Shown piece by piece: positions 13,895 through 50,993 of a DNA stretch of 64,000 nucleotides. The first letter of the stretch is position 1. Each line of letters starts with the position of its first letter. The DNA comes from Bacillota bacterium. Lineage in GTDB: Bacteria; Bacillota_I; Bacilli_A; ML615J-28; CAG-698. The notes beneath the pieces were generated by a model. That model was not told the DNA's origin and made no database searches. It saw nothing but the letters and a program-made list of their open reading frames with translations. The translations under genes and the position numbers were made by a program. The DNA lies in the NCBI GenBank assembly GCA_016280895.1, contig JAEEHM010000036.1, positions 1,367 to 65,366 of the forward strand. Direction: 5' to 3'.

Positions 13895-14089
13895 TTACTC
13901 TTTTTCTACTTTCTTTTTTACTTTCTTTTTTAAATCAACCCTCGGTAAAAGAATAATTCTTTTACAGCCCATACATTCTAATTTATAATCAATACCTGTT
14001 TTTAATACCTTCCATTCATTAGAACCACATGGATGATTCTTTTTAAATTGAAGGATATCTCCTACATCATAAATATTCGCACTATTCAT
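13895..14089 (-). CDS. DUF951 family small protein (YyzM-like)
   Basis: 64 aa. YDVGDIL.FKK.HPCGSNEWKVLKTGIDYKLEC.GC matches the conserved DUF951 pattern, which is typically origin-proximal in Firmicutes. Confidence 0.7.
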   Translation of the reverse strand: MNSANIYDVGDILQFKKNHPCGSNEWKVLKTGIDYKLECMGCKRIILLPRVDLKKKVKKKVEKE

Positions 14090-14879
14090 ATTTGTTTTCC
14101 TTATAATCTATTCTTTCAACACCAACTCTAATGTTGTATTTGTTGCAAATTTCATATATACGTTTTCTTAAAGCACGTTCTACAATATGTTTTGTTTCAT
14201 AATTAGTCTTAGCACTAACTTTGATAATAACATTTCCACCTATAAAATCTTCAATACCATTTACATTAGGCCCTTCCACAATTTGTGGATAGTCTTCTTT
14301 TAAACTACGTAGCTTTTCTTCTAATTTATTGATAAATTCTAATGTATCTCTTGTGTTTTCAATTGGAATTGTGACACTAGCACTAATTGGATTCTTAGAA
14401 TAATTAATTACTTCTTTAATTAATCCATTTGCGATTGTTTTTATTTCACCATTAGATGCTAAGATTTCTGTTCTATTGATAGAAATACTAATTACTTTAC
14501 CTTTAAAGTCGTTGATACATACATAATCATCTACTTCATACATATTAGTAAATATTGTATTCATACCAACAAAGACATCATTTAATAAGCTATGGAAGCC
14601 TAAACCAGCAATAGCAAGAATTGTGCAGAATATAACAAGACCAATAGTTGGATCCATACCCCATATAGCAATAATCACAAAGATAAATATTGCTGTAAGT
14701 AAGAATCTACAAATATTATAAATAAGTGAAAGCAAAGAAATTGCTTTATTAGACTTACCTTTCTTAGTACGATTAAATATAAATTTTAAAATAGCGAAGA
14801 TAACAATTGCGCTAACAATCGCAATTAATGTGAAAATTAAATCCTTAGCGTTGTTTTTAAACCATTCGATTATTGGCAT
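14082..14879 (-). CDS. Small-conductance mechanosensitive channel (MscS family)
   Basis: Three N-terminal TM helices followed by an MscS beta-domain pattern (DDYVCINDFKGKVISISINRTEILASNGEIKTIANG). Confidence 0.75.
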   Translation of the reverse strand: MPIIEWFKNNAKDLIFTLIAIVSAIVIFAILKFIFNRTKKGKSNKAISLLSLIYNICRFLLTAIFIFVIIAIWGMDPTIGLVIFCTILAIAGLGFHSLLNDVFVGMNTIFTNMYEVDDYVCINDFKGKVISISINRTEILASNGEIKTIANGLIKEVINYSKNPISASVTIPIENTRDTLEFINKLEEKLRSLKEDYPQIVEGPNVNGIEDFIGGNVIIKVSAKTNYETKHIVERALRKRIYEICNKYNIRVGVERIDYKENKYE

Positions 14880-14891
14880 ATTATCTCCTTT

Positions 14892-15668
14892 CTATTCTTG
14901 ATTATTAAAGATAATCTCTTTAGCAAGTTCTCGATATTCCTTTGAGCCCTTTGAATTAAACGCATATTGTAATACTGTTTGACCATGCATTGGTGCTTCT
15001 TGTAAATGTGTTGAACGATTAATGATTGTTTTAAAAGTTTTATTTGGAAACATTTCTTTTACTTCTTCAATAATCTTATAACCAAATAGATTTCTATTAT
15101 CAAGTTTAGTTAATAATACACCTTCAATTGTTAAAGACATTGAAAGTTCATTCTTATTTTTTTGAATTTGATTGATCTTATTAACCATTTGTGTTAAAGC
15201 ATCATATGCATAATATTCACATTCTACTGGAATAATTACAGAATCTGCTGCAAATAGCGCATTATCTACTAGTATTCCTAAAGTAGGTGGACAATCAATT
15301 AAAATATAATCATACACTTCTTTTAAATCTTTTATTTTATTAAATAAAATTAATTCATTATCTTTCTTATTTAATAATATCTCATATGCATCAACTAGTT
15401 TTACAGAAGATGGAATAATTTCAAATTTACTATCTAAATTACGATAGATAACATCACTTGCATTAATATCTTTTGTCATTAAATCGAAGCTTGTTGCATC
15501 AATCAATTCTCTTGATATTCCTAATCCTATTGTTGCATTAGCTTGAGGGTCTAAATCAATTACTAGAACCTTTAATTTCTTGTTCGCAAATGCAGCTGCT
15601 AAATTAATTGTGGTTGTTGTTTTACCAACACCACCTTTTTGATTAGTAATCGCAATTATCTTGCTCAT
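14892..15668 (-). CDS. soj: Chromosome partitioning ATPase ParA/Soj
   Basis: MSKIIAITNQKGGVGKTTT deviant Walker A, DLDPQANAT, IDCPP. Lies downstream of mnmG-rsmG as in the canonical cluster. Confidence 0.92.
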   Translation of the reverse strand: MSKIIAITNQKGGVGKTTTTINLAAAFANKKLKVLVIDLDPQANATIGLGISRELIDATSFDLMTKDINASDVIYRNLDSKFEIIPSSVKLVDAYEILLNKKDNELILFNKIKDLKEVYDYILIDCPPTLGILVDNALFAADSVIIPVECEYYAYDALTQMVNKINQIQKNKNELSMSLTIEGVLLTKLDNRNLFGYKIIEEVKEMFPNKTFKTIINRSTHLQEAPMHGQTVLQYAFNSKGSKEYRELAKEIIFNNQE

Positions 15669-15681
15669 ATTCCTCTCCTTA

Positions 15682-16341
15682 TTATAGTGGTTTTTTCTTT
15701 ATTTGCGCATATGGCCTTGGATAAATCTTATTTGTTTCTTTATCTTTCAAAAATTTAATTAATGAATGTCTTCCATATTCTTCTAGATCATATTCATAAA
15801 CATCTACAAGCTTCACATTAAGTGCCTTAATTGCACCATTTGCACCTTCTAACTCTTCTTTGTAATTAGATCCTTTATATCCTATAAAGTATCCATTCAC
15901 TTTTACAAGTGGAATACATAATTCAAGTAAGATACTTAAATTACTTACAGCTCTTGCAGTAACAATATCAAAATATCTATTTTTAATATTCTCAGCACGA
16001 TCATTAATTATTTCAACATTCTCTAATTTTAATAATTCAACTAAGCTTTCTAAAAACTTGCATCTTTTTAATGTTGGTTCAATGATGGTTAATTTAATAT
16101 TTGGATACATAATCTTTAAAGGAATCGATGGAAAACCTGCACCACTACCAACATCACATAAACTGATATCTTTTAAATCCATGATATTTTCTAAAGCAAG
16201 ACTGTCTAAGAAATGTTTAACATATACTTCATTTTCTAAAGTAATACTTGTTAAATTGTATTTTTCATTCTCACTTATTAGAAATTCATAATATTTCTTA
16301 AAAGCTTCATTATTATAAATATCAATTATTTTTGTTTTCAT
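15682..16341 (-). CDS. rsmG: 16S rRNA (guanine527-N7)-methyltransferase RsmG (GidB)
   Basis: DVGSGAGFPSIPLKI SAM motif. Position is after mnmG, with an overlapping stop/start. Confidence 0.92.
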   Translation of the reverse strand: MKTKIIDIYNNEAFKKYYEFLISENEKYNLTSITLENEVYVKHFLDSLALENIMDLKDISLCDVGSGAGFPSIPLKIMYPNIKLTIIEPTLKRCKFLESLVELLKLENVEIINDRAENIKNRYFDIVTARAVSNLSILLELCIPLVKVNGYFIGYKGSNYKEELEGANGAIKALNVKLVDVYEYDLEEYGRHSLIKFLKDKETNKIYPRPYAQIKKKPL

Positions 16342-37825: not shown

Positions 37826-41016
<3,191 letters not shown>

Positions 41017-41023
41017 AAGACCT

Positions 41024-41233
41024 CTATTTAATCACAAATTCTTGTTTTTCAACAACAATATGATCATTTGGATATAATTTTCTGCCTCTTCTGCAGTCAA
41101 TTTCGCCATTTATAAGCACTTCGTTCTCGCTTAAATAAATTTTGGCTAAAAATCCGCTGTCAATTATGCCAACAAATTTTAAAAATTGCCCAAGTGTAAT
41201 ATATTCTGTAGTAATTTTAACTTCTTTTGCCAT
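41024..41233 (-). CDS. yaaA: S4-domain RNA-binding protein YaaA
   Basis: 69 aa. ITLGQFLKFVGII.SG..AK......V.INGE...RRG.KL. Sits in the conserved position upstream of recF. Confidence 0.85.
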   Translation of the reverse strand: MAKEVKITTEYITLGQFLKFVGIIDSGFLAKIYLSENEVLINGEIDCRRGRKLYPNDHIVVEKQEFVIK

Positions 41234-41285
41234 AATTTTCTCCTGTTTTTTAGCCCTTTTTCTCTTTCTTATTATATATATACAT

Positions 41286-41296
41286 ATTATACCATA
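41286..41296 (-). promoter_or_regulatory. Extended -10 promoter of the yaaA-recF-gyrB-gyrA operon
   Basis: Minus strand TATGGTATAAT, about 50 nt upstream of the yaaA ATG. Confidence 0.55.
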
Positions 41297-41403
41297 AAAT
41301 TTACCAATTTTCCAGCATTATTTTAACGAATTTTCTCATTTTTTTCATTAATTTTGCACTTATCTTCCAAAGATAGAAAATAAAGACATTAAAATTACTA
41401 AAT

Positions 41404-42690
41404 ATTTATGGTTTTATGTATATACATACAGATAATCTGCCATATTTATGCTATTTCTGGTCTTATTTTAGATGTAATTCCATATTTACTCCTTTCTTTA
41501 AATAAATATATACATAAATATTTATATATTTACTCGTTATTATCATAATATCGGCTAAAATTGTGTATGGTTTTATGTATTTATGTATAAAATCTGGCTT
41601 ATTGGGGTTTAAATATAAACTAAATTAAGTTGAATCTTCTATTACTGCCTGTTTTATTGTCTGTTAGTGCTAATTTAATTACAAAAATTGTATGGTTTTA
41701 TGTATTTATGTATGAGTTATAGCCAATAAAATGACCATATTTGCATCAATTTAACAGAAAACCACATATAAATATCTACATAAATACGTATTTATGCATA
41801 TATTTACAATTAAAGCAGCAAAAACGCGTATGGTTTTATGTATTTATGTATAAATTATGCTCAATTTATGCCATTTTACAGTATGAACCCGATATTTTAG
41901 CTAGAATTATTTACTAATCATGATCTATAAATAGTAAAATCAGTTATTTACAAGCCAGTACAAGGGAAATTTAGGGCTAATTTAGGCTATTTTTCTGTTA
42001 TAAAGCAGCCGAAAAGGGCAAAAACACCACAAAAATCATAAATATTGCTATACATATTTATGTATTTATGTATCTATTTAAATATTTTTATATTTATTTA
42101 CTTATTTCCTTCTTGATTTAATGAAAAATATAGTTTATAATATATATTGTAAATGTTAAGAATCAGATTGTTGAAACGATCAACATTGAAAGATTTATAC
42201 ATATTTACATAAATACATAATATTTTAAATACATTTTTACATATTTATGTATAAGCATAATTACATTTATATGTATTTATGTATAAAAATAATTGTTTTA
42301 AGCTTTTCATCTGCTTTTAAAGGTCTTAAAACCGGTCAAATTGGCCCAAAAATGGCCAAAAATTATTTCGCTTATAATCATTTTGAAAGTCCGGGACAAT
42401 TTAGTTTACCTTAAAAGGCCAAAAAACGATTCTAGGGCAAAATTTAGTCAGTTTTCGAGGTTTTAATTTTAACTGATTTTTGTAATTGCATTAAAATATC
42501 GGCCGATTACAGAAAAAATGACCTTTTAAAAGATCAAAACCAAGAAAAAGTAGATTGAATTTGTGGTCAAATTTTCTAAAATCATGGTAAAAATGTGTCA
42601 TTTGTATGTATTTATGTATAGTTGTATTTATTCTTTTATGTATGTATTTAAAGATTTATTTATGTTTGTATGTATATACATAAATATGTA
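41404..42690. repeat. Dispersed array of TATGTAT / 8-bp-periodic repeats (candidate centromere/operator field)
   Basis: GTATGGTTTTATGTATTTATGTAT occurs identically at 41565-41588, 41690-41713 and 41828-41851. Related copies lie at 41407-41428, 42055-42073, 42238-42253, 42266-42285, 42603-42620, 42635-42650 and 42655-42690. Inverted copies lie at 41511-41520, 41777-41798 (palindrome TACATAAATAC/GTATTTATGCA) and 42196-42219. Confidence 0.85.
42113..42141 (+). promoter_or_regulatory. Consensus-like sigma-A promoter inside the repeat field
   Basis: TTGATT, 17 nt, TATAAT on the plus strand, pointing toward the RHH/ParA-like genes about 570 nt downstream. No convincing ORF follows it directly. Confidence 0.45.
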
Positions 42691-42712
42691 AACAATCTAG
42701 TAAGGAGGAATT

Positions 42713-43003
42713 ATGAATACACCATTTAAAAAGAGAACAGATCCATTTAAAAACGATACTGTAGCTGCTAAGGAAACAGAAGTTATAGTTGAAGAACCTG
42801 TAAAGGAAGTTAAAGTCGTAGAAACACCTAAACCAAAGGCAAAAGTTGTTGAAGTTAGTGATGAAAGTAGAGAAAAATACACTGCTACTATGGACAAAGC
42901 ATTACGTAAACGTATTAAATTAGCTGCAATTGAGGCTGGAGTGCAAGTTTCTACGTACATTGAGATGGCTTGTCTAGAAAAATTGAGTAGAGAAGGTAGA
43001 TAA
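42713..43003 (+). CDS. Ribbon-helix-helix (ParG/omega/CopG-like) small DNA-binding protein
   Basis: 96 aa. Disordered Lys/Glu/Val-rich N-terminus, then a beta-alpha-alpha pattern KYTATMDKALRKRIKLAAIEAGVQVSTYIEMACLEKL. Strong SD TAAGGAGG. Its stop lies 2 nt before the ParA-like ATG. Confidence 0.6.
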   Translation: MNTPFKKRTDPFKNDTVAAKETEVIVEEPVKEVKVVETPKPKAKVVEVSDESREKYTATMDKALRKRIKLAAIEAGVQVSTYIEMACLEKLSREGR

Positions 43004-43005
43004 AA

Positions 43006-43788
43006 ATGTCAACAATTTCAGTATTTTGTAAGAAAGGTGGCGTAGGAAAGACTACTTTCATTGGTTATTTAGGACATTATTATGCTAAACAAGGCAAAAA
43101 GGTCTTAATTATAAGTGCGGATGACCAAAATAGTATCTTTAAAATCTTTGGTGAAGACGATAAAATCTTCGAAAGCGACGATAATTACTTAGAATTCTAT
43201 ATTGCAGGCCGTGCAGAGCTTGGAGATTTGCTGATTCCTGTTCGTGAGAACCTTTATTTGATAAAAACATTGAATACAGACAAGTTATCAATGAAATTAA
43301 CTTATGAAAGAGCTCAAGAAAAGGTAATTAAGAGCATGTTTAAAGAATATGCAACATTCTTTGACTATATTTTAGTGGATTTTCCACCTTCAAGTAGCCG
43401 TTTAACTGAAATATTACTAGAAATAAGTGATCATGTTTGTATTGTAGTAGGCCTAGATACCCTAGGATTAGGTGGTTTTTGGAACACAATTCAATATTTT
43501 ATTGATAATGAGTTGGATTTAGAGTCAATTAAGTACATAATTCCTAATGGATATAGTAAAAATAGACGTGCTCCTAAGGTTTCTTTAGAGAAATTACAGG
43601 AACAAGTACAAGAATTTACTCCTCATGCAAAGCTTTTGAACCCAATTGCGGATAGAAGTATCGTTAAAAACCTTCAAGCTGAAGGAATTAGTGCTTTTGA
43701 TGAGGTTGAACTTCCTCCATATGACCGTGGACTTAAGGAACAACTAGAAAAAGACTTAAAAGCTTTGTTTGATGAATTAGAATTTTAA
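43006..43788 (+). CDS. ParA/MinD-superfamily ATPase, small type (no N-terminal HTH)
   Basis: ISVFCKKGGVGKTTF deviant Walker A, LIISADDQNS, and ILVDFPPS Walker B-like. 260 aa. Confidence 0.85.
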   Translation: MSTISVFCKKGGVGKTTFIGYLGHYYAKQGKKVLIISADDQNSIFKIFGEDDKIFESDDNYLEFYIAGRAELGDLLIPVRENLYLIKTLNTDKLSMKLTYERAQEKVIKSMFKEYATFFDYILVDFPPSSSRLTEILLEISDHVCIVVGLDTLGLGGFWNTIQYFIDNELDLESIKYIIPNGYSKNRRAPKVSLEKLQEQVQEFTPHAKLLNPIADRSIVKNLQAEGISAFDEVELPPYDRGLKEQLEKDLKALFDELEF

Positions 43789-43793
43789 TATAA

Positions 43794-43827
43794 AAAGAAA
43801 AAAGAACCATTGATTTGGTTCTTTTTC
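43794..43827. terminator. Bidirectional intrinsic terminator between the ParA-like gene and dnaN
   Basis: AGAACCA-ttgatt-TGGTTCT hairpin flanked by an A-run and a T-run. Confidence 0.7.
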
Positions 43828-43830
43828 TTA

Positions 43831-43850
43831 TTTATTTATGTATTTATGTA
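43831..43850. repeat. Extra copy of the TTATGTATTTATGTA repeat downstream of the ParA-like gene
   Basis: TTTATTTATGTATTTATGTA lies between the terminator and the dnaN stop, so the repeats bracket the gene pair. Confidence 0.7.
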
Positions 43851-43854
43851 AATA

Positions 43855-44976
43855 TTAGATTCTAACAGGCATATTTAATTGCATGTGATTTACATCATAA
43901 TCACTATTTATGATAAATGGTTTTACTTCACCGGTAAAATGAATAGTGATTTCATTTGAATCAAAGGCTTTTAATGCATCTAAGAAGTTCTTAGCACTAA
44001 ATGCAGTTTCAAAATTTAAGTATTTAGAGCAGCTAATTGGTTTAACCTTTTCTAAAGATCCACCAATTTCACTTGCTGAAGATGATATTAAGATCTCATT
44101 TTGTTCATTTATAGTAAATTTAATTACATTTGCTAAATCATTTGCTACAAAAAGTGATGCTCTATCGATCGCATTTATTAATTCTTGCTTGTTAAATTTG
44201 ATATCTGTAATAAATTCAGTAGGAATTAGACTCTTTGTATTAGGGAAATTGCCTTCAATTAGTCTAGTTTGGAATAAAATATTCTTATATTTGAACAAAG
44301 CTCTAGTTTGAGTGAAGTGAATTTGAACAATTTCTTGTACTTCTTCTACTATCTTATTCAATTCATCTAGAGATTTAGATGGGATGATTGCTTTTATTTG
44401 GGCATTCATGCCTTCAATCTTCATATATTTCTTAGCTAATCTAAAGCTATCTGTCGCAATTGCTTCTAATTTATCGCCATTTACAGTGAAGCTTACACCA
44501 GTTAAAACCATTTTAGCTTCTGATGGAGAAGTTGCAAAAGCAGTTTTCTTGATAATTTGTTTTAAATTGATACCATCTAAGTAAATAAAGTTTTGACTAT
44601 CATCGAATGCGATGTATGGAAAGATTGATTTATCATGTAGATTTAGAGTAAATGTAGATTGATCAGCTAATATTTTTACAGAATTCTTTTCAAATGTTTG
44701 AATAAGAAGAGAATCACAATCACATTTTCTTACAATATCACAAAAATATTTACCTGGTAATACAACTACACCTGTTTCTTTTATTGACAAATCATCGCTT
44801 GCTTCTATCTTTGTTTGGATAGAAATATCAGAATTTGATGCTGTTAGAGTTAAAAAGTTATTTTTAACATCTAATTTCATACCAGTAAGAATTGGCATTT
44901 GTGGTTTATTAGATAATGCCCTGCTGACATTATTCAAATTGTTTAACAACAACTCTCGTTTTATTTGGATTTTCAT
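43855..44976 (-). CDS. dnaN: DNA polymerase III beta sliding clamp
   Basis: 373 aa. N-terminus MKIQIKRELLLNNLNNVSRAL...PIL.G. Three-domain length. Immediately downstream of dnaA. Confidence 0.95.
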   Translation of the reverse strand: MKIQIKRELLLNNLNNVSRALSNKPQMPILTGMKLDVKNNFLTLTASNSDISIQTKIEASDDLSIKETGVVVLPGKYFCDIVRKCDCDSLLIQTFEKNSVKILADQSTFTLNLHDKSIFPYIAFDDSQNFIYLDGINLKQIIKKTAFATSPSEAKMVLTGVSFTVNGDKLEAIATDSFRLAKKYMKIEGMNAQIKAIIPSKSLDELNKIVEEVQEIVQIHFTQTRALFKYKNILFQTRLIEGNFPNTKSLIPTEFITDIKFNKQELINAIDRASLFVANDLANVIKFTINEQNEILISSSASEIGGSLEKVKPISCSKYLNFETAFSAKNFLDALKAFDSNEITIHFTGEVKPFIINSDYDVNHMQLNMPVRI

Positions 44977-45046: not shown

Positions 45047-46435
45047 CTATTTTAACAGCTTTTCTTTGATATATTGGATATCGTTTTTAGTGTTATTATT
45101 CTCATTCAACATATCTTTTATGCGTTCATAGCCGTAATTTACAGTTGTATGATCTTTTCCACCAAAGATTTCACCAATTTTTACTAGTTGTAATTTAAAT
45201 TCTGTTCTTAAAATGTAGAAGCAAATGTTTCTTGCATACACAATATTTGGTTTTCGACTTGCAGAAAGTAAATCAGTCTTACTAATTTGGAAATATGATG
45301 ACACTACATCTTTTAATTTCTCTACTGCTTGATCATCTTTATTTTCACTGTTTTTATTCTTTGGCATAATACCATCTAGAGTATAATACACGTTTTCAAC
45401 AGTGAATGGAAGATTCATTGATACACAATATGTGATAAATCTTCTAAGAGCGCCTTCTAATTCTCTTATATTGTTAGTGAAATTGTCTGCAATTACTTCT
45501 AAGCAGTCATCACTTACATCACTTACATTAGAAATCATGAATTCTAGCTTACGTCTTAAGATATTAACACGTAAATCTTTATCAGGAGATTGAATATCTA
45601 CAACAATTCCCCAGCTGAAACGTGATACTAATCTATTCATTAGTTTTAATTCACCTACTGGACGGTCACTTGTAATAACAATTTGTTTGTTATTTTCGTG
45701 TAAATATTCAAATACCTTAAAGAATTCTTCTTGAGTTCCAGGCTTATTAACTAAGAATTGAATATCATCGACAAGTAATACATCAGCTTGACGATATTTA
45801 TTATAGAAAAATTCAATATTCTTTGTATCTTTCTTTGTGTATACAAAATAATCTTCAGTAAATTGTTGGGCAGTTGTATAAATTACATTTGCATTGATGT
45901 TTCTATCTAAGATATAGTGGCCAATTGCCATCATTAGGTGAGTTTTACCCAAACCAACATCACCAAATATATACAAAGGATTTAAAACTGCATAAGGAGA
46001 TTCAGCAATTTTCATTGCTGTCACAAAAGCAAACCTATTTGATTCACCAACAACGAAATTATCAAAAGTGAATTCAGCTCTTAGTTTTCTTGAACTTCTT
46101 TCAAAGTTCATAGCATCTACTTGTGCTAATTTTTCTGTTGCTTTGTTTTCTTTTTCAGCATCTTCTTTTGTGATAAACTTAAATCCTGTCTTTGTTTGTA
46201 ATAAATCAGTTAAAATTTCGTTCATTCTTCTTGAATTAAACTTTTCAATCAAGAGTTTTGTTAGAGGATCTTTCACAATTACGTAAATATAATTGTTTTC
46301 GAACTTTAATACTTCGCGAGATTCACCAAATCTTTCTTCGAAGTTATCTAAATTCTCTGTTGGAGTTTCTTTTTTTAATTGATCTAAAACTTGTTCTAGA
46401 TATTTCTTAGCTTCTAAATTAGTCATAATATCCAC
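45047..46435 (-). CDS. dnaA: Chromosomal replication initiator DnaA
   Basis: FDNFVVGESNRFA, GDVGLGKTHL, LLVDDIQF and the C-terminal DNA-binding helix (DHTTV.YGYERI). A GTG start at 46435 lies 8 nt after AAAGGA. Confidence 0.97.
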   Translation of the reverse strand: MDIMTNLEAKKYLEQVLDQLKKETPTENLDNFEERFGESREVLKFENNYIYVIVKDPLTKLLIEKFNSRRMNEILTDLLQTKTGFKFITKEDAEKENKATEKLAQVDAMNFERSSRKLRAEFTFDNFVVGESNRFAFVTAMKIAESPYAVLNPLYIFGDVGLGKTHLMMAIGHYILDRNINANVIYTTAQQFTEDYFVYTKKDTKNIEFFYNKYRQADVLLVDDIQFLVNKPGTQEEFFKVFEYLHENNKQIVITSDRPVGELKLMNRLVSRFSWGIVVDIQSPDKDLRVNILRRKLEFMISNVSDVSDDCLEVIADNFTNNIRELEGALRRFITYCVSMNLPFTVENVYYTLDGIMPKNKNSENKDDQAVEKLKDVVSSYFQISKTDLLSASRKPNIVYARNICFYILRTEFKLQLVKIGEIFGGKDHTTVNYGYERIKDMLNENNNTKNDIQYIKEKLLK

Positions 46436-46673: not shown

Positions 46674-47840
46674 ATGAAAGAATCATGGTTTTCAAAATTA
46701 AATAATAGATTAGGGAAGTTATCACAAACTGCTTTAATATTAATACTTGTTATTTATTCATGTGTACTTGGTGGTATATATGCTCTTGTTACACTAACTA
46801 GATCATATCTTGTAGTACCAAATTATGAGCATGTATATTGGGATGAGGAAGTTAATCCACAAATTACTATTATTGGACGTCGTACTTTCGATTCGGATAA
46901 CAAGATGACTTTAAAATATAGTGTAAATGTAAGTGTTTATGGTCGTATTAGTCCTGCTTCTACAACAGATCCTGGATATGCACTAACAGATTTTAAGATG
47001 AGCGCTGCAACTGTTACATCTACTACATCTAAAAATCCAGCTAATATGTATTATTTTACTGAGTATAAGACTTATACAACTCCTACTACTCACTATTTCA
47101 CCTTAGATAATTCATCTGTAGATCAACATCCATATGAGTTATACACAATGATTCAACATAAAAAAGGCGGAAAAACAAAAATTTCCACTTATAAAGAAGA
47201 TGTCTTTTTATATCCTGATAGCAATGATATAACTAAGATTGATGATTATTTTAGTGCTCCAACTTCTGCTGATGCTACATCTAGAAATATTAAAAAAGGC
47301 GATGAACAAATCGCAAACATTCAATTTATTGCATCTAACCAAAGCGAATATTATTCTGGTGGTGTAAAAATTATCATGGATAAGCTTGGTGCTACATATA
47401 AACATCATATCGATATGCAATCTTGGATATTAACTAGTGATGGAAAATATTTGCCATTTGTGGGAGTATATAGTTATTCTCAACAAAAGACTAATTATAG
47501 TCAATCTGGTATTTCTATTTATAAACAACTTAATCCACAATATATAGTTGCTAAATTGAGATATTATTTCAGTGAAACAGAGTATCAAGATTATTATTTC
47601 AAACAAGCATTTGATAAATTACCTACTTCTTTCCAATCTAGCCCAAATGCAGCAGATGAAATTGAAGATAATAAAACAATCAATAAAGGACTTGTTATTG
47701 GTATATCAATTGGTGCAGCTGTATTAGTATGTGCAATTATTCTTCCATTGACAGTTGTATATATTAATAAGAAAAAGAAAAATAAGGAAACAAATTCTCT
47801 TCCTGAAAACGAGACTTCAGATAGTCCAAATCAGGAATAA
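46674..47840 (+). CDS. Hypothetical bitopic surface protein (N- and C-terminal TM anchors)
   Basis: 388-aa ORF. A TTGATT-17-TAAAAT promoter lies at 46621-46649. A hydrophobic helix sits near each end, with a Thr/Ser/Tyr-rich middle. No recognised motif. Confidence 0.55.
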   Translation: MKESWFSKLNNRLGKLSQTALILILVIYSCVLGGIYALVTLTRSYLVVPNYEHVYWDEEVNPQITIIGRRTFDSDNKMTLKYSVNVSVYGRISPASTTDPGYALTDFKMSAATVTSTTSKNPANMYYFTEYKTYTTPTTHYFTLDNSSVDQHPYELYTMIQHKKGGKTKISTYKEDVFLYPDSNDITKIDDYFSAPTSADATSRNIKKGDEQIANIQFIASNQSEYYSGGVKIIMDKLGATYKHHIDMQSWILTSDGKYLPFVGVYSYSQQKTNYSQSGISIYKQLNPQYIVAKLRYYFSETEYQDYYFKQAFDKLPTSFQSSPNAADEIEDNKTINKGLVIGISIGAAVLVCAIILPLTVVYINKKKKNKETNSLPENETSDSPNQE

Positions 47841-50122: not shown

Positions 50123-50815
50123 TTAATATGTTTGAATAGATTTCATTTCAAGATCTTCTAAGAAATCCATAAATGGTTTGATATCTTTATCAACCTTGAA
50201 TGATTCTAATGCAGAGAAATATTTATCTCTTTCGTCTGATGTAATAATAACAGGCATAAATCCGTTCTTCATTAATTCATAATTTAATACTAAACGAGCT
50301 AAACGTCCATTACCATCTAAGAATGGATGAATCTTAGCAAGTTGTAAATGTAGATATGAGATATATTCCCATAAATCGCCTTTTGGTCCTTCTTGCATGA
50401 AAACAAAATACTTAGCCATTCTATCATATACCTTTTCATATGAACAAGGAGTATGATTAGATCCTTTAACAGAAATATTAACACGACGGTATAAACCACC
50501 AACTTCTGCTTCTCCATCACATAGGATTTGGTGAAGATCTTTTAATGTGTTTTCATCTAATTCTACTTTGTCCTTAGCCATTTGAAGAACTTTTAAGAAT
50601 GCGTTCTTTTGATTAATGATTTTTCTTACTTTGTCTGGATTAACTCCAACAACTTCGCCGTTTAAAACCTTTACTACATCTTCCTTCTTTAATGAAGGGT
50701 TATCGAAAGCTAGAGCACTTTGAACCAAATTGACTAAGAATTCTTCGCTAATCTCTAAAAAATTCTTTGTTTGTTTTGCTTCTTCAAGTGCTTTAGATAA
50801 TTTCTCGTTTATCAT
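50123..50815 (-). CDS. Fic/DOC family protein (AMPylase-type motif)
   Basis: HPFLDGNGRLARL matches the Fic motif HxFx(D/E)GNGRxxR. Start is at MINEKL, 8 nt after GGAGGT. A TGTGTTATAAT box lies at 50849-50859. Confidence 0.85.
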   Translation of the reverse strand: MINEKLSKALEEAKQTKNFLEISEEFLVNLVQSALAFDNPSLKKEDVVKVLNGEVVGVNPDKVRKIINQKNAFLKVLQMAKDKVELDENTLKDLHQILCDGEAEVGGLYRRVNISVKGSNHTPCSYEKVYDRMAKYFVFMQEGPKGDLWEYISYLHLQLAKIHPFLDGNGRLARLVLNYELMKNGFMPVIITSDERDKYFSALESFKVDKDIKPFMDFLEDLEMKSIQTY

Positions 50816-50993
50816 ATATTTTACCTCCAATATATATATTACAATTCTATTATAACACAAATAAAATATATTTCAACAAAAATTGTAAACGATTTTATTT
50901 TTATTTTAAATTATGATTAAGATGGTAAAATAATATAAAAGTTGAAATGTAGTAAAAAATGAATTATAATAAAAATAAAGAGAGAAAGTTTAT

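Follow-up and report, generated by a model that had tools for sequence, protein, structure and literature searches.

An origin-proximal ParA and ribbon-helix-helix cassette with a field of phased repeats: a candidate chromosomal partition system of uncultured Bacilli

The cytidine triphosphate (CTP)-dependent ParB-parS centromere is near-universal. Centromere binders of the ribbon-helix-helix (RHH) type are known on plasmids, with archaeal SegB as the chromosomal example. The omega protein of plasmid pSM19035 uses a 7-bp heptad as its unit. In plasmid TP228, the parH/OF region is made of 4-bp ParG boxes and 4-bp AT-rich spacers, arranged as direct and inverted copies, with one RHH dimer per box (PMC3130281). 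SegB recognizes two 23-bp palindromes, with its sites just upstream of the operon; its unstructured N-terminus stimulates the SegA ATPase, and it forms a higher-order, chromatin-like complex (PMC8682754). Here we analyze a cassette of comparable architecture in a 64,000-nucleotide stretch (the window) of contig JAEEHM010000036.1 (assembly GCA_016280895.1), from an uncultured gut Bacilli/Acholeplasma-like bacterium. The block that holds the cassette sits between dnaN and yaaA-recF-gyrBA. It carries, on the plus strand and separated by 2 nt, genes for a 96-aa RHH protein (42713-43003), the candidate centromere-binding protein, and for a 260-aa ATPase of the ParA/MinD superfamily (43006-43788). 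They are preceded by a gene-free intergenic field of 1.48 kb with 14 phased repeat arrays (41234-42712), which we propose as the centromere.

With moderate confidence, we read the cassette as a vertically inherited chromosomal partition system at oriC, of type-Ib-like architecture, because it combines a small ParA without a helix-turn-helix (HTH) domain, an RHH protein with a basic tail, and iterated sites beside the operon. The evidence comes from the geometry of the repeats, from their conservation together with the two genes, and from the features of the two proteins.

The original prediction had noted TATGTAT-type repeats in the field and one more copy on the far side of the genes. Both were found again: 41273-43850 contains 15 arrays, each of 2-5 phased units, with 31 exact units among a total of 45; 14 arrays lie inside the field and one beyond the operon. 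The 14-mer TATGTATTTATGTA, at no more than one mismatch, occurs in 10 copies, all within 41574-43850, against an expectation of 0.31. The density of TATGTAT is 9.5 per kb in the block versus 0.55 per kb elsewhere in the window, a 17-fold difference, and the other 61 kb of the window contain no array with two or more exact units.

In the pooled intergenic fields of 40 related genomes, ATGTA cores are strictly phased at 8 bp. Cores on the same strand lie 8, 16, 24, 32 or 40 bp apart, and cores on opposite strands are offset by -9/-17 and +7/+15, which puts both orientations into one 8-bp register around the TG/CA step. Since the phasing holds in both orientations, the unit is a pseudo-palindromic hexamer TAYRTA (mostly TATGTA or TACATA) plus 2 bp. 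Units are both direct and inverted. Arrays typically comprise 2-5 units, are about 100 bp apart (median), and fill 10-30% of the field, which in the window is AT-rich (23% GC). A regular spacing of arrays, of the kind that nucleosome-like wrapping would give, was considered and rejected, as inter-array distances are broadly distributed around the median and lack periodicity.

The arrays closest to the operon (42605-42618, 42637-42650 and 42661-42690 in the phased-array scan) stop 23 nt short of the first codon of the RHH gene and share sequence with promoter-like hexamers (sites at 42555-42582 and 42595-42622). The distance from the final array to the RHH start is 23-100 nt in most of the related loci. 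These proximal arrays may therefore serve as an autoregulatory operator. On the other side of the operon, a three-unit array (TATTTA TATGTA TATGTA, 43829-43850) lies in the gap that separates a terminator-like hairpin from the end of dnaN; of 62 related loci, 11 have such a downstream array.

The field itself is gene-free. In 41234-42712, chance open reading frames (ORFs) of 41-58 aa occur and none reaches 60 aa, and gene callers placed zero genes in the homologous field on 14 contigs; a hidden gene was therefore rejected. A hidden RNA was also rejected, as Rfam gave just a sub-threshold chance match to a miRNA, and a defence system was dropped because PADLOC returned no meaningful match. The spacers between arrays do not recur elsewhere in the window.

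Some spacers have features of their own. Those at 41874-42030 and 42300-42600 are GC-richer and species-specific and contain short repeats (AAAAGGCCAAAAA; GGGCWAAWTTTAG), and a terminator-like hairpin lies in spacer DNA at 42341-42359. Spacers are about 5-12% diverged among strains with an identical ParA protein; on one metagenome-assembly contig (L007; GCA_016295295.1, JAEEGK010010468.1), even these fast-evolving parts are 100% identical to the window. A 51-nt spacer piece (42421-42471) weakly matches two related loci, L053 and L055.

Conservation of the cassette was analyzed at several distances. The exact ParA protein is encoded on 23 metagenome contigs, with the same gene order at 10 of 10 places among the matches listed, and this order also holds for homologues with 66-70% identity, whose gene-free fields measure 1.6, 2.1 and 2.8 kb. 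A scan restricted to one genome per GTDB species recovered 80 loci, with titles such as uncultured Bacilli, Acholeplasmatales, Mollicutes, 'Staphylococcus sp. CAG:324' and 'Coprobacillus sp. CAG:698', and with ParA identities of 47-84%. The layout is identical in all 80: every locus with enough flanking sequence reads gyrB-recF-yaaA (minus strand), a field of 0.7-3.2 kb, RHH gene and ParA gene (plus strand), and dnaN-dnaA (minus strand). The operon is head-on to the left replichore in every genome compared.

Arrays with at least two exact units were counted in 62 loci: the 102 kb of field contain 297, the gap between ParA and dnaN 16, and the 671 kb of flanks just 2. When the window's field is compared with those of other species, similarity is confined to the array blocks and does not extend to the spacers, so that nothing but the repeats is conserved in the intergenic DNA. 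Copies are fewer in the most distant subclade, in which the RHH strand reads KYTSTM, yet TACATAAATA-type words are still the top recurrent k-mers; the TACATA/TATGTA motif is thus retained alongside near-invariant putative DNA-facing residues.

Within the species, 10 contigs encoding identical ParA were compared. Polymorphic columns make up 9 of 240 in array hexamers versus 220 of 1187 outside (Fisher p=1.6e-10), five times fewer, with a mild ascertainment bias in that the arrays were defined on the window sequence. The repeats are therefore under purifying selection within the species. Identical synteny in 80 species and constrained repeats indicate that the cassette is ancestral and selectively maintained rather than inserted. 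A strain-specific insertion, raised as a possibility by the original prediction, is excluded by the comparison of the dnaN-recF interval in relatives, and a recent insertion or mobile element was also rejected, given the shared synteny and the lack of flanking integrase genes or att remnants. Plasmid searches gave no close relative of either the ATPase or the RHH protein.

An alignment of 22 homologues divides the 96-aa protein into three modules. The N-terminal peptide PFKKRxDPF (residues 4-12) is nearly invariant, and the linker that follows is rich in E, K, V and P and variable in length and composition. The C-terminal 45 residues (REKYTATMDxxLRxRxKxA...S.FIE.A..EKL.REG) are almost invariant and contain the RHH domain (approximately residues 53-96) with the beta-strand KYTATM, whose putative DNA-facing residues K55, T57 and T59 hardly vary. 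Pfam and PHROG searches with the single sequence gave weak matches to RHH/Arc families, and the family profile matches the RHH regulator SvtR (2kel, E=7.2e-6). In the single-chain AlphaFold (AF2) model, the predicted local distance difference test score (pLDDT) is about 92 for residues 61-96, 71 for residues 51-60 and low for residues 1-50, and an extended strand is followed by helices at 62-75 and 79-94. Foldseek against the PDB returned RHH proteins at ranks 1-44, with template modeling (TM) scores of 0.7-0.8 on the target, among them Arc, AmrZ, CopG, antitoxins, SvtR and the RHH part of MatP. Model and profile thus agree with the earlier assignment of this protein to the RHH fold, with a predicted flexible N-terminal tail.

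The family is small and sharply bounded. Among 1.84 billion representative proteins, 65 clusters match its profile at E<=1e-10, and the next matches begin near 1e-5; among plasmid proteins, no relative was found at E<=1. In six loci (L033, L034, L039, L056, L062 and L082), the open frame of the RHH gene runs upstream into the repeat arrays, giving artefactual N-termini (for example MFICAFMYICFYVF), and automatic annotation may mis-call the start there.

The ATPase has its deviant Walker A motif (KKGGVGKTT) from residue 9 onward and therefore lacks an N-terminal HTH domain, in agreement with its original description as a small ParA. AAA_31 (3.9e-24) and CbiA (3.2e-10) are its sole significant Pfam domains, and it matches PHROG 164, 'ParA-like partition protein', at 4.6e-30. 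The family alignment shows no variation in Walker A, Walker A' (DDQ) or Walker B (DFPP). Sequence relationships to described proteins are remote: identity of the ATPase is 27% to the Soj encoded in the window and 26-30% to the nearest plasmid ParAs, so that any 'type Ib' character rests on architecture and not on phylogeny.

Attempts to assign the ATPase to a subfamily failed. No NCBIfam equivalog reaches its cut-off, with all matches far below. The family profile ranks pNOB8 ParA (4.6e-9), a mycobacterial ParA-like protein, HpSoj (2.5e-8) and pSM19035 delta (2e-7) slightly ahead of MinD (4e-7). Single-sequence PDB matches and fold matches also include McdA, MinD and MipZ, with scores near those of ParF, Soj and delta, and Foldseek did not separate McdA, MinD, ParF, Soj and MipZ when run on the mediocre AF2 model (pLDDT 71, with residues 40-72 below 50). 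The non-specific DNA-binding arginine of Soj could not be mapped onto the ATPase, as the C-terminal alignment is too weak. Partition ParAs are thus the best profile matches, as had been anticipated, but MinD, McdA and MipZ are not set apart by sequence or fold, and the protein is best described from its sequence as a divergent member of the ParA/MinD superfamily.

Taken together, these features suggest how the cassette could work. Dimers of the 96-aa protein would insert the KYTATM beta-ribbon into the major groove of TAYRTA hexamers, with one dimer per 8-bp unit and cooperative binding of neighboring units. Binding across the dispersed arrays would turn the dnaN-yaaA interval into a large nucleoprotein centromere, and at the proximal arrays, doubling as operator, it would repress the RHH protein's own operon. 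The basic PFKKRxDPF peptide on its flexible linker would contact the ATP-bound ParA dimer and stimulate ATP hydrolysis; the one sign of such a contact read here is the conserved basic motif itself. By a diffusion-ratchet like that of plasmid ParA systems, nucleoid-bound ParA-ATP would then move or position the region of the origin. We infer repeat binding, ParA stimulation and a segregation role on this basis.

The location of the cassette relative to the origin fits this proposal. The ORF map reproduces the predicted gene coordinates and the separation of dnaN from yaaA-recF-gyrBA. On the minus strand, dnaA (45047-46435; DnaA confirmed on identical metagenome contigs) and dnaN (43855-44976; Pfam DnaN) lie on one side of the block, and yaaA (41024-41233; S4_2 domain) and recF (39934-41016), both supported by Pfam, on the other, with gyrB and gyrA completing the cluster after recF, as confirmed on identical metagenome contigs. 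The bidirectional terminator that had been claimed between ParA and dnaN corresponds to an intrinsic-terminator-like hairpin (43799-43826 on the plus strand, 43827-43798 on the minus strand) with stems of 11-12 bp and T tails on both strands, common to the convergent ParA and dnaN transcripts. DnaA boxes, one perfect and several with one mismatch, flank dnaA, and none was found at up to one mismatch in 41234-43854, so that oriC is most likely at dnaA, 1-4 kb from the cassette.

A canonical Soj-type ParA is encoded elsewhere in the window (14892-15668, minus strand; Pfam AAA_31 1.6e-60), between gidB upstream and a gene for an MscS-type channel downstream. It has no adjacent parB, as originally observed, and the same is true of relatives: the order gidA-gidB-soj-mscS(-DUF951) (window 14082-16341, minus strand) recurs without parB in three related loci (L095-L097), with Soj 65-69% identical. 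The suggested search for parS (TGTTNCACGTGAAACA, a 16-bp palindrome) gave no match at up to two mismatches within the 64-kb window, and the ParB box II motif GERRxRA does not occur in any frame of it.

The cassette therefore probably substitutes, in this lineage, for the Spo0J/ParB-parS system that is missing beside soj. More tentatively, and as a proposal that may well not hold, an order-level lineage of low-GC or wall-less Bacilli (Acholeplasmatales-like, from gut and digester metagenome-assembled genomes, MAGs) might have swapped ParB-parS for a CTP-independent RHH centromere composed of a kilobase field of 8-bp-phased TATGTA units next to oriC, a clade-specific RHH protein and a dedicated ParA. 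If so, it would be the first type-Ib-like system for segregating a bacterial chromosome and a bacterial counterpart of archaeal SegAB. The RHH complex may also take over other roles of ParB, such as origin organization or condensin recruitment.

Several observations weigh against a partition function or against replacement of ParB. The sites are dispersed over 1-3 kb and do not form a compact centromere of approximately 100 bp, and the RHH gene comes before the ParA gene, opposite to the order in TP228 parFG and SegAB. The ATPase cannot be assigned to partition ParAs over positioning ATPases of the MinD, McdA or MipZ type, given that E-values between subfamilies differ by only 2-3 orders and Foldseek ranks all of them together. 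The genome also keeps a canonical Soj, the ParB/parS scan covers 64 kb, so that ParB-parS may be present elsewhere in the genome, and the lineage is known from MAGs only. Among other explanations, the ATPase findings would suit a MipZ/MinD/McdA-like positioning ATPase that uses the RHH-coated origin as a landmark for other cargo, for example the division site or a protein complex. The matches to McdA, MinD and MipZ score like those to ParF, Soj and delta, and retention of a separate Soj would also be understandable. The signature lysine is present, however (KKGGVGKT), unlike in McdA, the ParA-like Walker A' of the DxxDxQ type (DDQNS) is nearer to the DPQ of ParA/Soj than to MinD, no MinC, MinE or McdB-like genes are found nearby, and the profile search puts partition ParAs first. 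We consider this explanation quite unlikely. A role in origin regulation is unlikely too, if somewhat easier to entertain. Here the RHH protein would coat the field to silence or insulate the origin, or to control dnaN/dnaA expression or initiation, and the ATPase would modulate DnaA or origin architecture, as Soj does in Bacillus subtilis. The locus is directly beside dnaA-dnaN, with DnaA boxes flanking dnaA; RHH proteins are typically repressors, in line with the top fold matches (Arc, CopG, AmrZ and antitoxins); the proximal arrays share sequence with promoter-like sites; and the field is far larger than a plasmid centromere. For repression alone, however, there would be no need of a partner ATPase whose catalytic motifs are intact, or of an N-terminal peptide that is conserved, resembles a ParA tail and sits on a flexible linker, and the field is free of DnaA boxes. 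The two roles are also not exclusive, as omega and ParG are both regulators and centromere binders.

The remaining alternatives concern the origin of the block and of replication. It is highly improbable that the 1.5-kb field is itself the replication origin, of iteron type or as the unwinding part of oriC, with the genes co-directional with one fork. The field is AT-rich and repeat-laden, and the cumulative GC-skew minimum falls near 41-42 kb; this skew is, however, dominated by the coding strand and cannot resolve 5 kb, and skew at four-fold sites is uninformative because G and C are too rare there. The distribution of DnaA boxes, perfect and near-perfect around dnaA and absent from the block, points elsewhere, and no Rep-type initiator gene is present. 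Even less credible is the idea that an integrated plasmid or prophage left its partition module here as a relic, kept as a selfish or neutral passenger that does nothing for the chromosome. The architecture of plasmid type Ib systems, the PHROG ParA-like match and the head-on orientation against the replichore would be in line with such a relic. Position and orientation are the same in 80 species with ParA identities down to 47%, though, the catalytic and putative DNA-contact residues are invariant, the repeats are under purifying selection, and there are no integrase/att remnants at the flanks and no close plasmid homologue. As a recent event, a relic is largely refuted; an ancient domestication is possible and would be compatible with the cassette being a chromosomal partition system.

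Other features of the origin region were also recorded. Between dnaA and rpmH, the usual place of oriC sequences, a 388-aa ORF (46674-47840, plus strand) without Pfam or PADLOC match encodes hydrophobic segments at both termini and a lysine-rich tail; by tblastn, about 38 species-level loci of relatives have a homologue at this position (50 hits including the window and same-species contigs). GyrB (37826-39937, minus strand; 703 aa) has an acidic N-terminal extension of about 60 aa that is missing in the relatives L011-L014, whose GyrB measures 639-642 aa. A Fic-domain gene (50123-50860, minus strand) lies on the opposite strand directly past jag (R3H/KH), a position kept in L001-L013.

If the partition reading is correct, one bacterial lineage has a chromosomal RHH centromere at oriC, kept across at least 80 species. 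ParB-parS would then be replaceable wholesale, and plasmid type Ib systems would be linked to archaeal SegAB. The locus would represent a natural, dispersed, kilobase-sized RHH centromere, a model for how non-spreading binders build large partition complexes. In many gut MAGs, a 'hypothetical protein plus ParA plus long gap' recurs at the origin, for which this reading would account, and phased TAYRTA could serve as a motif for annotating similar loci. Full-text searches returned no prior description of the arrangement, which, with incomplete coverage, is weak evidence of novelty.

How, then, does the cassette compare with the described systems? TP228 ParF-ParG shares with it a small Walker-type ParA without HTH domain, an RHH binder with a flexible N-terminal tail (which in ParG activates the ATPase), and arrays upstream of the operon with boxes in an 8-bp register and mixed orientation. 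The present locus differs in being chromosomal, origin-proximal and vertically inherited across at least 80 species, in its box (TAYRTA versus ACTC in TP228), and in having about 15 short arrays over 1-3 kb, where TP228 packs 20 contiguous boxes into about 160 bp. The resemblance of the ATPase to ParF is one of fold only; ParG was not found by sequence, and the fold matches listed for the RHH protein (the best 50 of 63 at E<=10) do not include it. In pSM19035, also from Firmicutes, a ParA (delta) is combined with the RHH protein omega. At a number of separate sites, omega binds short repeats irrespective of their orientation, and it is also a repressor, as we propose for the 96-aa protein. Delta (2oze, E=2e-7) gives the longest aligned stretch among the profile matches of the ATPase (residues 9-230). 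The pSM19035 system is, however, plasmid-borne, delta and omega are transcribed separately, their sequence identity to the proteins described here is very low, and the omega heptad contrasts with an 8-bp unit.

Among chromosomal systems, Sulfolobus SegA-SegB likewise pairs a ParA-type ATPase with a site-specific RHH binder. It is archaeal, has the order segA then segB, and uses two palindromes versus a kilobase field of 8-bp units. SegA is at rank 24 among the fold matches of the ATPase, as one of many superfamily members, and SegB was matched neither by sequence nor in the list of 50 RHH-protein fold matches, so that the resemblance is one of architectural analogy. ParA(Soj)-ParB(Spo0J)-parS also combines an origin-proximal ParA ATPase with a site-specific DNA binder, and ParB has an N-terminal ParA-activating peptide to which the peptide of the RHH protein may be likened. 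The partner is a 96-aa RHH protein rather than an HTH/CTPase ParB, and parS and GERRxRA are absent from the window; the locus is therefore not a ParABS system.

Type Ib plasmid systems, to which ParF/ParG, delta/omega and pB171 par2 belong, have a ParA of about 200-300 aa without the N-terminal HTH of type Ia ParAs. Measured against them, the locus has the small ParA without HTH, the RHH protein with a predicted flexible tail and the iterated repeats adjoining the operon, but plasmid carriage does not apply, as in each of the 80 species it lies on the chromosome, between dnaN and yaaA. The label 'plasmid-type' in the original prediction thus stands for the architecture and falls for descent, with a ParA at most about 30% identical to plasmid ParAs, an RHH protein without plasmid match and a gene order reversed relative to parFG. 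Given the chromosomal location throughout and the distance from plasmid ParAs, we describe the cassette as working like type Ib rather than filing it as a plasmid system: by analogy, it works like TP228 ParFG-parH, pSM19035 delta-omega and SegAB, and it is a member of none of them.

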